From NCBI RefSeq assembly GCF_058153355.1, contig NZ_CM177019.1: 64,000 bases of DNA. One strand, 5' to 3'. The notes under the pieces were generated by a model. That model made no database searches and was not told the origin of the DNA. It saw only the letters and a program-made list of their open reading frames with translations. Positions 58,616 to 63,760 of this stretch are shown here, piece after piece. The translations under genes and the position numbers were made by a program. Within the stretch, counting starts at the first letter, position 1; each line of letters starts with the position of its first letter.

Positions 58616-59846
58616 TTTTTGGGGGCTTAAAATCTCCTGCCGGGTTAGCAGCATTCACGCTTACCAGCATCTCATCCAGCCCTTCAACCGGATTCATATC
58701 CTCGAATGCGCGGGCCTCATTACGGCTCATCCATCCATCGGTAATAGCGAAGTGATAGAATTGCGCGCGCTCCTGCGGAGTTCCGCGTAAAAGCCCCGTC
58801 AGATTGAACCTGACGTAATACCCGGCGGCTAACTCAGCGCGGGTAAACAAGCGACGGTTAAGCTCCTGCTCCCAGTTCGTCACCCACGGCATCATCGTGT
58901 AGCGGACAAACTGAATCGCCTGCGCAGAAATATTGGAGAAGGTGGCTTTTTCGAGGTCATTAATCATGTGCGCAGGAATATTGAAAATACCGGCAATCAT
59001 TGAACGGTTCAGTTTCATCATGTCAATGATCTGAGCGTCAACTGGCGACACAGTCAGTGCCTTGTAATCCAGATCGGCTGGCAACAGCATGGTTTTGTTT
59101 TCCTGGCTGCGTAACGCCTGCGATGCCTTCTGCCACTGATCTTTAAGCCAGCCCCAGCTGTCCTTATTGAGTCCGCTTTTAACGGATACTATCCCCGCCG
59201 GACGGGCATTACCGCTGAAGAAGCTTTCTGTGTATTTCTGACCGCTCATCCCCATGCCTATTGTTTCGGCATGTTGCATAATCGGACTCAGCCCCATCTT
59301 CTGATTATTACCCAGCGCACGAATGTGGATCATATCGTCGGGGCTGATCGCAAACGCCCCATATTCGTTGTACAAACCGTAGGTGTATCGGCCACCAGTA
59401 TTCATCAGCGTCGTTTCCCACGGCATACAGCAATCCAGGGATATGACTTCACCGCGACGATTACGTTTCACCCAGGTATACCCATTCCCCCAGCCAAGGA
59501 TGTGACGTTGCTTCAGTTCGCGCCATTTGTAACTGGTTTGCCAGGTATTGGGCTCATCATGAACCAGATAAAACGCCGGATGATCGCGTGCGGGCTCAAC
59601 CTTCCCATTGTGCCTGCGCATAACATGCAACGGCATCTGGGCAAGGCTGGAAGACAGGACATAGATACAGGAATACACCGCAGCCAGTTTCATCGCAGTT
59701 TCAGGACTGACATAAACGTCTGCCCGGAACAGCCCATCAGTATCAACGGCATCCCCGGTTATCGGGGTGGAAGGATTCTCCAGTGCTTTACTTCTGAACA
59801 GAGCATCAAGCAGCACGCGTCCCCCTTCTGGCCATAGCCAGTGCAC
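58590..59846 (-). CDS. Portal protein (HK97-family)
   Basis: 418-aa ORF between terminase and protease. Confidence 0.85.
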   Translation of the reverse strand: MHWLWPEGGRVLLDALFRSKALENPSTPITGDAVDTDGLFRADVYVSPETAMKLAAVYSCIYVLSSSLAQMPLHVMRRHNGKVEPARDHPAFYLVHDEPNTWQTSYKWRELKQRHILGWGNGYTWVKRNRRGEVISLDCCMPWETTLMNTGGRYTYGLYNEYGAFAISPDDMIHIRALGNNQKMGLSPIMQHAETIGMGMSGQKYTESFFSGNARPAGIVSVKSGLNKDSWGWLKDQWQKASQALRSQENKTMLLPADLDYKALTVSPVDAQIIDMMKLNRSMIAGIFNIPAHMINDLEKATFSNISAQAIQFVRYTMMPWVTNWEQELNRRLFTRAELAAGYYVRFNLTGLLRGTPQERAQFYHFAITDGWMSRNEARAFEDMNPVEGLDEMLVSVNAANPAGDFKPPKNDEGKTNE

Positions 59847-59963
59847 CCACCAGCAGTAAACCGCCGGACAGCATCAGAGCCGGAGCCATACCAAACTGCA
59901 GGTAAAACCCGCACGCAAGCAGGCCAAAACCAGCCAGCCCGATAACATCAGCAATTAGTGATT

Positions 59964-61697
59964 TCATAGAATTAAGAGAGCATCGTCCGGATCAAGAGAT
60001 GAGAGGAAATCGTCGGGTTCTTTGAGCATTGCCCGACCGATCGCCATAATCAGTGCAACCGCACCATCGATTTTGTTTTCCGCCTGCTCCTTGACAGGCT
60101 TCACCACATCATCGTTACCCGGAATAGTTTTGCCGACCACGTTGCCGATACACCAGGTCATGATGGGATTGCCGTCATGATGAAAGCGCCCCGATTCAAT
60201 CGCCGCTTCCAGCTCTTTCATCGGATCGGACATGTTGGTGTAGTTCTGAATGATGGTGATGGGGTTCAGGTCTTCATCAGCAAGGTCATGCGACAGCCCG
60301 GTCGCCCCGAAGGGGTCGATGGGTGACTCACTGACCGGGCTGATTTTGTTCGCCGCTTTGGCCTCCTCGAGGATGTAGCGATAATCCACCTCCGCACCAG
60401 CGGTAACAGTCAGAACGCCCATTTCCACCCATTTCTGAAAGCGTTCGGCTGTCCGGCGATCTTCATTTTTCTCGACGCTGTACACCGTGTCATACGGTAC
60501 CCAGAAACGCGGAGCCACACTGTAGTAATGCGTTTTACCGTCAATCTCGCGGGTATAAAGTCGCGCCATGCTGTTCATATCCAGCTTACGCGCCAGGTCA
60601 AAGGCCAGAATGCACGGCTGCCCCTCGAACTGCTCAAGGGACAGTGATTTATCCTCGCAGCTCTGCCAGCTCACCAGGTTGAAATACGCCGAACGCGCCG
60701 ACACCCAGATATTGAGGTGTTTTGTTTTAAAGACGTTTGCCAGACGGGCGTTATTTTTCGCACGCTGCTGCTGACTTAACAAAAATTCGCGATAAACCGA
60801 CACGCCAATATTCGGGTTAGCTTTTTCCAGCACCTGCGGGTCGGTCCAGTCATCGCCTTCGTCAACGGTATAGATGATCCCGAACAATTCATCGTTGGGT
60901 ACCGACCCGTTGAGCATCTCGATAACTTCCCGCCGCTTGTCGTAGCACGGCCCCTCAATGTTGTACCCGGCGGTGGTGATGGCCCACATCAGTGGCTGAC
61001 GTCGCGCCCCCATCCCGGTAAGCATCGTGGTATAAAGCGCATCGGTGGCGTGCTCGTGATATTCATCCACGACGGCACAGTGGGGTGATGAACCATCACC
61101 GGGGTTACCGATCAGCGGTTCAAACCGCGCGCCATCCTCCGGACGGTTCATGTTTGAGGCGTTAACCTCAATCCCGAACGCTTCCGTCAGCATGGGTGTG
61201 CGTTTACACATCAGTCGAGCCGGGCGAAAGACTTCCCACGCCTGTTTCTCTGTCGTGGCACCGGAATACACTTCCGCGCCAAACTCGTTATCACAGGCAA
61301 AACAATACAGGGCAACACCGGCAGAGATTGCCGATTTGCCGTTCTTACGGGGGATTTCGGTATACACCTCCCTGAAGCGGCGCAGCCGGGAGCCTTTATT
61401 GACCCAGCCAAACGCACAGCAGATCACAAAGAGCTGCCACGGTTCCAGCGTGATGGGCATCCTCTTGAATGCCCACTCCCCCTTGGTGTGTGGCAACAGC
61501 TGAATAAATTTCGCGGCCCGTTCAGCCAGGTCCTTGTCGAAGCGGTAACGAAACGACTTACTTTTTTCCGCCATCAGGTCATCAAGATGGCGCTGGCAGG
61601 CCTGAATCACAAACTGGCAGGCCACAATCTTTCCGCGCACGACATCACGGGCATACTGATTGGCAGCATTTACGTTGGGGTAAGATTTCCGGCTCAT
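59964..61697 (-). CDS. Terminase large subunit
   Basis: 577-aa ORF with ATPase and nuclease regions. Confidence 0.9.
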
Positions 61698-62197
61698 GAT
61701 TCGATGATTTTCAGAAACGGGTTAGTGGCTTTCTTCTGCCCCGCCAGGCCAATCAGACGCTGGCGGCTGCTGGGGTCGAGTCCGAGCATTGCCCCCGTGC
61801 TGCTCATCTCGGACTCCTGTTCTTTTTTGGCTGTCAGCTCCGGATTTTTGACCCTGCCGCCCATTGCGCCGGTGATGGTGTTGCCCTGTATGGCAATATT
61901 TTTCACGGCACGTCGCCAGAACTCATAGGCCACGCACCACCGCTCAAGCACCGCGAGGTCAGTCACGCACAGCAGGCCCTGACCGCAGAGTTCTTTGGTT
62001 GTCAGTTGCCACATGATCGTGGCGAGAGTGAGATCTTCTTCAGCGAACCACTCCGGTGGCTCAACACCTTTGATGGGCGTAAAAACAGGTTCATCTTTGT
62101 TCAGGGCTCGCTTGCCGGGGTTTCCGGCCAGCGCCTTGCGCGCCGTTGGCTTGGGGCGACGCCCGGAACGCCCCGCCGTTCCAGCCATATGCGGCAC
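61694..62197 (-). CDS. Terminase small subunit (P27-family-like)
   Basis: 167-aa ORF overlapping the terminase large start. Confidence 0.8.
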
Positions 62198-62313: not shown

Positions 62314-62664
62314 TCACTTAAGTCGTTCACGGGCCGTCTTCGCCTTATGACACGGCCAGCACAGACTCTGCAGATTACAGTCGGCATCAGTGCCGCCATG
62401 CGCTTTAGGGATGATGTGGTCAACGGTTTTCGCCTCACGCACCACACCAGCACGCAGACATAACTGACACAGGCCTTTGTCACGCTTCAGGACACGCGCG
62501 CGGATACTGTCCCACTTCGAACCATAGCCGCGCTGATGACGGGACTGACCTGGCTTGTATTGCTTCCAGCCTTCACTTTTGTGGCTTTCGCAATAGCCTG
62601 ACGGGTCAGTGGTTGTAGAGCTGCAGCCGCGAATACGGCAGGCCTTTGGGATTCGTGGTGGCAT
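62314..62664 (-). CDS. HNH endonuclease (packaging-associated)
   Basis: 116-aa ORF with Cys pairs (C..C ... C..C) and His-Asn-His signature, immediately upstream of terminase. Confidence 0.85.
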   Translation of the reverse strand: MPPRIPKACRIRGCSSTTTDPSGYCESHKSEGWKQYKPGQSRHQRGYGSKWDSIRARVLKRDKGLCQLCLRAGVVREAKTVDHIIPKAHGGTDADCNLQSLCWPCHKAKTARERLK

Positions 62665-62689: not shown

Positions 62690-63214
62690 CTACTTCGTCA
62701 TCATTTTACTAAGTTCCTGAGGAGTCAATTCCCATGTAATAAACCGAGAAGACTCCAAAACATCATCTTCTCCGAGCAAGTATTTACGTATATTCTTCAT
62801 GAAGACCCTATAATCTGGGGCATCATTCTTGTGCGACAGAATTTTAGACAATTCCGTTGCTAGATCAGCTGGTAACCATAAAAAAGCCTCATTTGTTAAT
62901 TGTCTTAATCTTTTTCTGTCATAGGGATTTGTCATCCATTCAGACATAAGCTCGGCAATTAATGCCGACTTCATTCTTATCTCATGTTGCCTTTTTTGCT
63001 TATCCAGAATAACAGTGTTTGCTGTTTTTATTGTTTCAAGCATAACATCGTATTCATGCTTGACTGCATTCTGCACAGTGCTTTGTAGCCAAGTTCTCCC
63101 AATAAAAAACATTAAAGGGAGTATTACAACCCAAGCGATTACATTTGCTATCCAACCAGCGTCCATATCTATCCTCATGAAAATAAAAATGATTAACACA
63201 CAAGCTGTTAGCAT
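62690..63214 (-). CDS. Hypothetical membrane-anchored protein (prophage moron candidate)
   Basis: 174-aa ORF with two N-terminal hydrophobic helices, AT-rich coding sequence, wedged between lysis cassette and HNH/terminase. Confidence 0.5.
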   Translation of the reverse strand: MLTACVLIIFIFMRIDMDAGWIANVIAWVVILPLMFFIGRTWLQSTVQNAVKHEYDVMLETIKTANTVILDKQKRQHEIRMKSALIAELMSEWMTNPYDRKRLRQLTNEAFLWLPADLATELSKILSHKNDAPDYRVFMKNIRKYLLGEDDVLESSRFITWELTPQELSKMMTK

Positions 63215-63225
63215 ATAACATTATT

Positions 63226-63483
63226 TCAATGATTACTTCTTTTGCTTTCTATTTTGCGGATTGCAACTTTATCTTGATTACATTGATTTAATGCTGATAA
63301 CAAATTCACATTCAAATCAAGACTTGCACCATACGTCAGTGGGTTGGGTATAAACGGTACAGGAGTATCAGAAGTCAAGCTGACTGGTAGTGGTGTCTTC
63401 GGAATGCTCACGTAAACTGTTCGCGTACTTCCGCAACCTGTCAGCAGCGGCAGCAGGTACAGGACGGGCAGCACAATCATCAT
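63226..63483 (-). CDS. o-spanin (Rz1-like outer-membrane lipoprotein)
   Basis: +1-frame ORF overlapping the end of Rz; MMIVLPVLYLLPLLTGC lipobox, proline-rich mature region. Confidence 0.6.
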   Translation of the reverse strand: MMIVLPVLYLLPLLTGCGSTRTVYVSIPKTPLPVSLTSDTPVPFIPNPLTYGASLDLNVNLLSALNQCNQDKVAIRKIESKRSNH

Positions 63484-63760
63484 CCGCAACAGCCACTTTA
63501 ATATCTTCCTGGGTTCTCTGTGACTCCAGTGCGATCTGCTGTTTTGCATGCTGGTTAGCCTCCAGAACTGTATTGACGATTTGCATTGATTGCAGGACGT
63601 TATTGGTAATGGCAGTTGCTGATTCAGCATTTTGTACAGCCTCATCAGCACGTTTCTTTTCGTACTGATATTTGCTGTAGTAGTAGTTGGCTGACCAGAT
63701 GAAAGAACCAATGGCAGTAACGAAAAAAGCAGCGATAATCAGCTTATAACTCAACTTCAT
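63368..63760 (-). CDS. i-spanin (Rz-like)
   Basis: 130-aa ORF with N-terminal TM helix and coiled-coil region, immediately downstream of endolysin. Confidence 0.7.
   Translation of the reverse strand: MKLSYKLIIAAFFVTAIGSFIWSANYYYSKYQYEKKRADEAVQNAESATAITNNVLQSMQIVNTVLEANQHAKQQIALESQRTQEDIKVAVADDDCAARPVPAAAADRLRKYANSLREHSEDTTTSQLDF

Follow-up and report, generated by a model that had tools for sequence, protein, structure and literature searches.

Gene arrangement between terminase and portal

In the analyzed window, a DNA stretch of 64,000 nucleotides, a small open reading frame (ORF) of 53 codons lies at positions 59806 to 59967 between the genes for the terminase large subunit (TerL) and the portal protein. 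All genes studied here, and the features described within them, are on the minus strand. TerL (577 amino acids; 59964 to 61697) was identified by its matches to the Pfam domains TerL_ATPase (3.5e-26) and TerL_nuclease (3.6e-33), and its RefSeq relatives carry the name terminase large subunit. The portal protein is of the HK97 type (Pfam Phage_portal, 3.1e-98; TIGR01537, 5.6e-96), and a GTG start at 59816, which yields 408 amino acids (58590 to 59816), is supported by the RefSeq start and relatives. The original prediction had given the small ORF with its translation, and both agree exactly with the DNA. The ATGA arrangement that it described was also seen in the sequence (59964 to 59967): the ATG of the small ORF (59967-59965) shares bases with the TerL stop codon TGA (59966-59964), forming a putative termination-reinitiation junction. 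The reported overlap with the portal frame holds as well, in that the longest form of the portal ORF starts at the GTG whose first base is 59846 and overlaps the small ORF.

The small ORF had further been described as unannotated, which does not apply. RefSeq lists near-identical copies of 162 nt as hypothetical protein WP_000838374.1, and several phage records annotate them as well, so the gene is already known to databases; its present status is that of a conserved hypothetical gene which current pipelines call correctly. The SfV reference record (U82619.2) carries no annotation for it. The window copy is 98% identical to WP_000838374.1 and has Ala18 where the RefSeq protein has Thr18; the exact Ala18 variant was found only in Logan assemblies.

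Conservation and selection of the small ORF

The length of the small ORF is by itself not significant because the ORF list of the window contains dozens of ORFs of 30-60 amino acids. To collect relatives, genome contigs were searched with a degenerate DNA pattern, which returned 77 stretches, 41 of them chance matches that were dropped using the family HMM, and a phage collection was searched with a DNA query for the small ORF. The pN/pS ratio was 0.31 in the frame of the small ORF compared with 0.84-3.3 in the other five frames, while the flanking coding regions gave 0.28 (TerL C-terminus) and 0.21 (portal N-terminus). Variable columns numbered 30, 16 and 43 at codon positions 1, 2 and 3, respectively. 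An intact ORF of 52-53 amino acids was present in all 87 loci that carry the family. The small protein matched phrog_7105 with an E-value of 3.2e-21, residues 1-52 aligning with positions 1-52 of the 52-position profile, and a profile search retrieved 153 clusters of relatives (50% identity), nearly all of 45-65 amino acids and aligning end to end. The gene order is equally constant, with TerL upstream in 35 of 35 species-level loci and the portal gene downstream in 36 of 36. Part of the conservation at the C-terminus of the small protein is due to the portal ribosome-binding site and start codon and not to the protein itself.

The conservation check suggested with the original prediction thus found the small ORF retained from Enterobacterales to Halomonas, Pasteurellaceae, Cupriavidus and a Ralstonia phage, the last with a member of the same family in the slot between TerL and portal. 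Of the two alternatives that had been offered, the first, in which the ORF encodes a small membrane protein and the portal begins further in, is favored by the pN/pS values, the conservation and the portal alignment described below; a chance ORF is rejected by selection in its own frame and by the intact ORF in every family locus. Searches of the small protein against Pfam, NCBIfam and PADLOC gave no match, nor did a sequence search of the PDB. A Foldseek search of viral structures returned insignificant helical-hairpin matches, none with an E-value of 0.001 or below, and a literature search brought up no study that addresses what this family or ymfR does.

The portal start site

A Shine-Dalgarno (SD) sequence, AAGGGGGA (59820 to 59827), precedes the portal start and coincides with the Arg-Arg-Gly codons of the small ORF, whose final codons AGA AGG GGG are at the same time the portal SD. 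Its duplex with the 16S rRNA 3' end has a delta-G of -10.8, and the family median is -10.15 compared with -2.5 at random positions (p 2e-20). Relatives keep AGGGGG, AGGAGA or AGGAGG at this site and have an ATG at the position of 59816, which RefSeq relatives use as the portal start. The portal gene read from GTG 59816 overlaps the end of the small ORF by 11 nt, and the small-ORF stop codon lies within 11 nt of the portal start in 34 of 36 loci.

The upstream in-frame GTG (59844 to 59846), which opens the longest portal ORF, was rejected as the portal start on several grounds. In the portal frame upstream of 59816 the pN/pS ratio is 1.0; the GTG is missing in two loci (L084 and L086), and three others (L005, L006 and L072) have in-frame stop codons 3-5 codons upstream of the 59816 start. 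Its SD is also weaker, with a delta-G of -5.7. Portal homologues, whose alignment had been proposed as a means of fixing the start, align with the 59816 version from its first residue and not from 59846. A programmed frameshift that would fuse the hairpin to the portal was likewise discarded: overlaps between small ORF and portal of 11, 8, 7, 4, 1, 0 and -9 nt among the relatives cover all three frame relations, and the spacing of the portal SD to the start codon suits initiation.

These data bear directly on the alternative that the small ORF arises by chance within an N-terminal extension of the portal, starting at GTG 59846 or, according to the SfV record, further upstream. It could draw on the length of the portal ORF from 59846 and on GenBank U82619.2, in which the portal is annotated from within the small ORF. 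However, the lack of constraint upstream of 59816, the relatives with stops or no start codon there, a strong and conserved SD that serves only 59816 and the alignment of homologues from residue 1 of that version leave this alternative with hardly any probability. The SfV reference record misplaces the portal start. It is considered very probable that the small ORF is a real, coupled gene for a membrane protein and that the portal starts at 59816. For annotation, the portals of SfV-like prophages begin at the SD-preceded GTG or ATG (59816 in the window), and the small ORF is to be retained as a gene.

Probable translational coupling to TerL

The 4-nt overlap of the small-ORF start with the TerL stop codon (NTGA) recurs in 21 of 35 species-level loci, and in seven more the two abut directly (0 nt); the start lies within 10 nt of the TerL stop in 33 of 35. 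ATG and GTG starts alternate among the relatives while the overlap is kept. An SD for the small ORF could not be recognized, the delta-G being +0.3 here and the family median -2.8 compared with -2.5 at random positions (p 0.23). Promoter or terminator candidates for the small ORF did not rise above chance, as their counts do not exceed those in shuffled sequences. A terminator-like hairpin inside the small ORF (59897-59913) was taken as a chance feature, total counts being below the shuffle expectation; the "putative terminator" annotated within SfII_03 of phage SfII is probably the same kind of artefact.

The conserved overlap and the lack of an SD agree with the translational coupling to TerL that had been proposed from the junction, and this comparison suggests that translation of the small ORF, which has no SD of its own, is handed on from TerL. 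Ribosomes terminating at the TerL stop codon would restart at the overlapping ATG, and because the small ORF has neither a ribosome-binding site nor a promoter of its own, such termination-reinitiation would be the sole source of the small protein. The overlapping starts and stops together with the internal SD suggest a single chain of overlapping cistrons from which TerS, TerL, the small protein, the portal and the protease are all produced. Sequence and comparison together identify the small ORF as a late-operon gene of an SfV-like prophage.

A predicted membrane hairpin

Two hydrophobic helices had been predicted for the small protein, and hydropathy and structure prediction agree on them. 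Kyte-Doolittle maxima in 15-residue windows are 2.13 (residues 4-18) and 2.16 (residues 31-45), and AlphaFold2, run with a 49-sequence alignment, placed helices at residues 3-25 and 27-52 with a mean pLDDT of 86.7. Helix 1 (59893 to 59961) carries the near-invariant Asp7, Gly13 and Gly20, and helix 2 (59812 to 59889) carries the invariant Gly35 and the basic end RRGTR. Across the family Gly13 and Gly35 do not vary, and Asp7, Gly20 and Gly26 are at least 96% conserved. The family mean of Lys plus Arg residues is 2.35 in the C-terminal tail, 0.31 in the loop and 0.98 at the N-terminus and, by the positive-inside rule, this distribution indicates an N-in/C-in topology. The small protein is therefore predicted to be a helical hairpin of the inner membrane with both ends in the cytoplasm.

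Co-inheritance with the portal

The small gene follows the portal more closely than it follows TerL. Compared with the phages Evi and VIPKPNMC05, TerL is 36% identical, the small protein 51-66% and the portal 84-86%; ST64B and SfII have a TerL with 91-97% identity, a small protein from another family and a portal with 27% identity. Small-protein identity correlated with portal identity at a Spearman coefficient of 0.72 (partial 0.67) and with the TerL core at 0.39 (partial 0.14), kinship being ignored in both cases. In two loci (L093 and L094) the small gene is set apart from TerL by five intervening ORFs, and the 11-nt overlap with the portal is still present. The last 15 TerL codons (59967 to 60011) encode an acidic-hydrophobic tail whose identity tracks that of the portal, with raw Spearman coefficients, kinship ignored, of 0.78 for portal identity and 0.31 for the TerL core. 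Even phages with a TerL of just 36% identity conserve this tail, and from what is generally known of terminases we take it to be a portal-docking segment. As traced by sequence comparison, the small gene, the portal and approximately the last 15 residues of TerL are passed on together, through recombination that swaps the rest of TerL. The co-inheritance could be simple hitch-hiking of the small gene between TerL tail and portal, two parts that must stay together.

Possible functions of the small protein

A role of the small protein as a portal-linked membrane factor in head assembly is inferred tentatively and has to be regarded as possible but doubtful. At the inner membrane, the hairpin would cooperate with the portal while heads are assembled or DNA is packaged, possibly by tethering or nucleating the portal ring in analogy to the membrane-bound gp20/gp40 initiator of phage T4. 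A precedent for membrane-initiated portal assembly is provided by T4 gp20, gp40 and YidC (PMC9958956, PMC4493910). HK97 assembles heads without a counterpart of the small protein, which counts against an assembly role and, if such a role exists, would mean that the HK97-type pathway uses the hairpin as an accessory and can do without it. No similarity to T4 gp40 or to an assembly chaperone family emerged from searches of PHROG, Pfam, NCBIfam, the PDB and protein folds, the sole PHROG matches being the two membrane-protein families phrog_7105 and phrog_502. The complete reading, in which a coupled hairpin gene is combined with a portal-linked assembly role, is the best explanation at hand and is given somewhat less than an even chance.

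Other functions were weighed against it. Superinfection exclusion is a task of small membrane proteins, HK97 gp15 and T4 Imm among them, and the small protein might similarly be a moron that merely happens to lie in the head operon while serving the lysogen from the inner membrane, for instance by keeping out the DNA of other phages. PHROGs places the related phrog_502 under "moron, auxiliary metabolic gene and host takeover", but this category stems solely from the label "membrane protein". The decayed e14 prophage of E. coli K-12 retains an intact ymfR between remnants of the TerL and portal genes, and in one further locus (L160) the small ORF is intact next to a damaged portal region; a gene of 160 nt may, however, survive intact by chance. 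The gene has no SD and no adjoining promoter-like site above chance, and its dependence on TerL termination should restrict its expression to the late, lytic phase. It is moreover always joined to the portal start and co-varies with the portal, and a moron function is accordingly rated as rather unlikely. A lysis-related hairpin that times or executes lysis as a holin, pinholin or antiholin-like protein is even less probable. Class II holins and pinholins have a small N-in/C-in architecture with two transmembrane helices, which the small protein shares in its size, predicted topology, glycine-rich helices and basic C-terminus. Its C-terminal tail, however, comprises just about seven residues, no holin family was matched in Pfam, PHROG and NCBIfam scans, and the gene always adjoins the portal and lies approximately 3.3 kb from the nearest lysis genes visible in the window (spanin-like ORFs at 63226-63760). 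Two annotated holin genes, an endolysin gene and a spanin gene accompany this same small gene in a close relative.

Equally improbable is a coupling spacer, an ORF encoding a functionless peptide that passes ribosomes from TerL to the portal and thereby sets the ratio of the two proteins. The small ORF does lack an SD, overlaps both neighbors and contains the portal SD, and HK97 couples the two genes through a direct overlap of TerL and portal. Such a spacer is at odds with purifying selection at the amino acid level (the pN/pS of 0.31), with glycines that stay invariant down to approximately 30% identity and with a length and hairpin architecture shared by at least three PHROG families; moreover, the small gene of L093 and L094 is not adjacent to TerL.

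Comparison with known systems

The closest counterpart is phrog_7105/WP_000838374.1 of SfV-like prophages, a full-length match in the same TerL-small gene-portal arrangement. Analogous genes with two transmembrane helices occupy this slot in ST64B, SfII, phiP27, phiE125, Vibrio phage Cla and e14. YmfR of E. coli K-12 e14 (b1150, IPR020297), phiP27 L37, ST64B Sb3, SfII_03 and phiE125 gp3 belong to phrog_502, "membrane protein", and have 60-61 amino acids and two membrane helices. The small protein matched phrog_502 at 9e-5 by hmmscan, phiE125 gp3 matched both families (5e-15 and 1.3e-6), and hhalign of the two families gave a probability of 96.3% (E 1.9e-9, 51 columns), all of these being scores that transmembrane composition inflates. 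BLASTP aligned the window protein with phiE125 gp3 at 38% identity over 42 residues and with the YmfR type over just 13 residues. Pfam and NCBIfam scans matched neither the small protein nor YmfR. A remote relationship to YmfR, phiP27 L37 and phiE125 gp3 is supported by these profile comparisons, with clear differences: the phrog_502 proteins are longer, their partner portals form a different clade (27-34% identity) and the YmfR-type gene begins 11 nt past the TerL stop codon, whereas the window ORF overlaps it. A tiny membrane protein tied to the portal gene occurs in many temperate phages of Gamma- and Betaproteobacteria, ymfR of K-12 e14 being one such gene. That the hairpin and its YmfR-type cousins are a widespread portal-specific membrane tether or nucleator is considered unlikely; if true, the inner membrane would be the site at which many HK97-like phages of Proteobacteria begin to assemble heads or dock the packaging motor. 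To our knowledge, such a start of head assembly has so far been documented mainly in T4 (gp20/gp40).

Three further systems invite comparison. Class II holins and pinholins likewise are small, with two transmembrane helices, N-in/C-in topology and a basic C-terminus; unlike these, the small gene lies outside the lysis cassette, has no holin family match and occurs in relatives with separate holin genes. In phage lambda, too, a small gene separates terminase gene A from portal gene B. Its product gpW joins heads to tails as a soluble protein, unlike the predicted membrane hairpin, which has no Pfam match to gpW. Phage T4 gp40 with membrane-bound gp20, a phage factor aiding membrane-associated assembly of the portal ring, offers a functional model for the hairpin (PMC9958956, PMC4493910). 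No sequence relationship to gp40 was detected and the genomic position differs, so that the parallel would be functional only. If the hairpin does link portal assembly or packaging to the membrane, an idea specific to T4 would be extended to HK97-like phages.

Gene order and coding capacity of the TerL/portal interval

The head-packaging module of an SfV-like E. coli prophage occupies this region; it is encoded on the minus strand and shares 99.5% identity with many E. coli chromosomes and 95% with phage SfV. An HNH endonuclease gene (62314-62664) is followed by genes for the P27-family small terminase TerS (61694-62197) and the large terminase TerL (59964-61697), the 53-codon small ORF (59806-59967) and genes for an HK97-type portal, a prohead protease and the major capsid protein. 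The spanin genes are separated from the HNH gene by a 174-aa ORF (62690-63214, minus strand) that is hydrophobic at its N-terminus and has no PHROG match; this slot varies among relatives and holds iss in O157 strains and other hypothetical genes elsewhere.

The small ORF yielded exactly the translation quoted in the original prediction. Among 44 distinct DNA variants, pN/pS was 0.31 in its frame, compared with 0.28 for the TerL C-terminus and 0.21 for the portal N-terminus. The other five frames gave values of 0.49-3.3, the sole low one being the antisense frame with shared third positions. Variable columns were distributed 30/16/43 over the codon positions (chi-square against equal use approximately 12, p approximately 0.002 by our own arithmetic). 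The ORF was conserved among related prophages, being intact (52-53 aa) in 87 of the 87 loci that carry the family, and matched phrog_7105 end to end (E 3e-21). A profile from 14 homologues was searched against 1.84 billion representative proteins (E <= 1e-3) and retrieved 153 clusters of relatives, nearly all 45-65 aa in length, with alignments covering residues 1 to ~50. Gly13 and Gly35 were invariant in 49 diverse members, Asp7, Gly20 and Gly26 were conserved in at least 96% and Leu31 in about 94%. Judged by these comparative patterns, the small ORF is a real coding gene.

It had been described as unannotated, which proved incorrect. RefSeq/PGAP already calls the 162-nt gene in close relatives ("hypothetical protein", WP_000838374.1), it is annotated in the records of phages F1055, vB_VIPKPNMC05 and Evi, and variants occur on more than 1000 contigs, every one named hypothetical. 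The gene is thus already known and has its place in PHROGs; its exact form in the window (Ala18 instead of Thr18) was found only in Logan assemblies.

The protein has two hydrophobic stretches (Kyte-Doolittle peaks 2.13 and 2.16), with the conserved YLQFG motif forming a tight turn between them, and AlphaFold2 placed helices at residues 3-25 and 27-52 (mean pLDDT 86.7). Mean Lys+Arg content is 2.35 in the C-tail, 0.98 at the N-terminus and 0.31 in the loop, and the positive-inside rule therefore predicts an N-in/C-in hairpin.

Position of the portal start

The portal start is assigned to 59816, the RefSeq/PGAP start, which lies 151 nt into the small gene and gives an 11-nt overlap. This assignment was made because the aligned codon is ATG in the Klebsiella, Evi and F1055 relatives, three loci (L005, L006 and L072) have in-frame stops 3-5 codons upstream of it, the GTG at 59846 is absent in two others (L084 and L086), and the stretch of portal frame that precedes 59816 shows neutral evolution (pN/pS 1.0). 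It is preceded by a strong Shine-Dalgarno (SD) sequence, AAGGGGGA (59820-59827; delta-G -10.8), and the portal SD reached a median delta-G of -10.15 over 34 relatives versus -2.5 at random positions (p 2e-20). When the resulting 408-aa version is compared with homologous portals of 36 species, the alignments begin at its residue 1 and not at 59846. Coding selection, family conservation and this start together bear out the first alternative originally proposed, a small membrane protein with the portal starting further in.

At its C-terminus (59820-59829, minus strand), the small protein is encoded by rare Arg codons, AGA-AGG, that double as the portal SD, and one sequence is thus both a predicted membrane-anchoring basic tail and a ribosome-binding site. 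Fusion of the small ORF to the portal by frameshifting was rejected, since their frame relation is not conserved. The SfV reference record (U82619.2) lacks the small ORF (2289-2450) and begins the portal, orf3, within it at 2392; comparative data put that start 48 nt downstream.

Probable translational coupling

The ATG of the small ORF overlaps the TerL TGA as ATGA, and this stop-start overlap is kept even where GTG replaces ATG. The small ORF has no SD (delta-G +0.3 in the window; family median -2.8, p 0.23 versus random positions), and no promoter-like or terminator-like sites were detected above shuffle expectation. The proposed coupling to TerL is thereby strengthened: the small ORF is probably translated by termination-reinitiation from TerL, so that its product would be made late in lytic growth. 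The same ATGA arrangement joins the TerS stop to the TerL start (61694-61697, minus strand), and TerL lacks an SD (delta-G +0.4); TerS, TerL, small ORF, portal and protease are thus linked in a single series of overlapping cistrons. Within the small ORF there is a weak terminator-like hairpin (59897-59913, minus strand), and the SfII record (2370-2419) annotates a "putative rho-independent terminator" inside the counterpart gene. As counts were below shuffle expectation, GC-rich codons for hydrophobic residues probably produce such a hairpin as an artefact.

Distribution and co-inheritance with the portal

A search of one genome per species with a degenerate DNA pattern gave 77 stretches, of which 36 passed the family HMM. 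These loci include Enterobacterales (Citrobacter, Serratia, Kluyvera, Kosakonia, Buttiauxella, Mixta, Mangrovibacter), Pasteurellaceae, Halomonas, Salinicola, Marinobacter, Endozoicomonas, Neptuniibacter, Cupriavidus and one Amycolatopsis. TerL was upstream in 35/35 and the portal downstream in 36/36 of this species-level set. At the TerL junction, the genes overlap by 4 nt in 21 loci and abut directly in 7. At the portal junction, they overlap by 11 nt (12 loci), 4 nt (10 loci), 7-8 nt (4 loci) or 0-1 nt (5 loci) or are separated by a 9-nt gap (3 loci). A Ralstonia phage and distant metagenomic members share this layout. In Actinobacillus capsulatus (L160, 3014-3166) the small ORF is intact but sits 1.1 kb away from TerL, and residue 107 is the first portal position matched; in Amycolatopsis (L130, 2391-2585) a family-like 64-aa ORF is flanked by a TerL-like gene and a portal gene resembling that of ST64B.

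Compared with Evi and VIPKPNMC05, TerL is 36%, the small protein 51-66% and the portal 84-86% identical, with the last ~12 TerL residues conserved. Compared with ST64B and SfII, TerL is 91-97% and the portal 27% identical, the TerL tail differs and their small protein belongs to phrog_502. A mosaic joint is located at the TerL 3' end (~59996-60025, minus strand), where ST64B/SfII homology stops near 60025 and that with Klebsiella phages and Evi sets in near 59996-60011; the last ~15 TerL residues are therefore part of the portal module. In correlations that ignore phylogeny, small-protein identity in the species set tracked the portal (Spearman 0.72, partial 0.67) rather than the TerL core (0.39, partial 0.14), as did the TerL tail (0.78 versus 0.31 for the core). 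A distant relative (L093/L094, 1217-3500) has five unannotated ORFs between TerL and the small gene and keeps the 11-nt portal overlap. The small gene thus seems to travel with the portal, yet physical adjacency alone yields linkage.

Potential function and related families

No function for the phrog_7105 family or ymfR was found in the literature within reach. We tentatively prefer, as a possibility, that the small protein is a portal-linked factor of the inner membrane with a role in head assembly or packaging, because of its presumed late TerL-dependent expression, its obligatory fusion to the portal start and its co-inheritance with the portal and TerL tail. T4 portal assembly, which is initiated at the membrane with gp20, gp40 and YidC, provides a precedent (PMC9958956, PMC4493910). 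A protein serving lysogen benefit or exclusion is unlikely. The predicted hairpin could also be lysis-related, a rather improbable role given the two separate holin genes of a close relative, and a pure coupling spacer, which is similarly improbable, is contradicted by the amino-acid-level selection. That the ORF arose by chance is barely credible. Beyond the portal-linked model, the analysis provides a corrected portal start, dual-use SD/Arg codons and the portal-linked spread of an uncharacterised superfamily including ymfR.

In phages with other portal clades, this position is taken by a different small gene for a two-helix protein: phrog_502 counterparts are ST64B Sb3, SfII_03, phiP27 L37, phiE125 gp3 and YmfR of the cryptic K-12 prophage e14, and Vibrio phage Cla has CLA_0062 (phrog_4810). 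In e14 (L091, 2550-2732), ymfR (60 aa) remains intact, flanked by aaaE, a terminase remnant, and beeE, the truncated portal gene. Profile cross-hits, the bridging of families by phiE125 gp3 and an hhalign comparison (probability 96%, E 1.9e-9) suggest that phrog_7105 and these families are one diverged superfamily, a grouping to be read with caution given transmembrane composition bias. HK97, in contrast, lacks such a gene, and the overlap of its TerL gene with the portal gene is direct, so the small protein would be an accessory to the HK97-type pathway.
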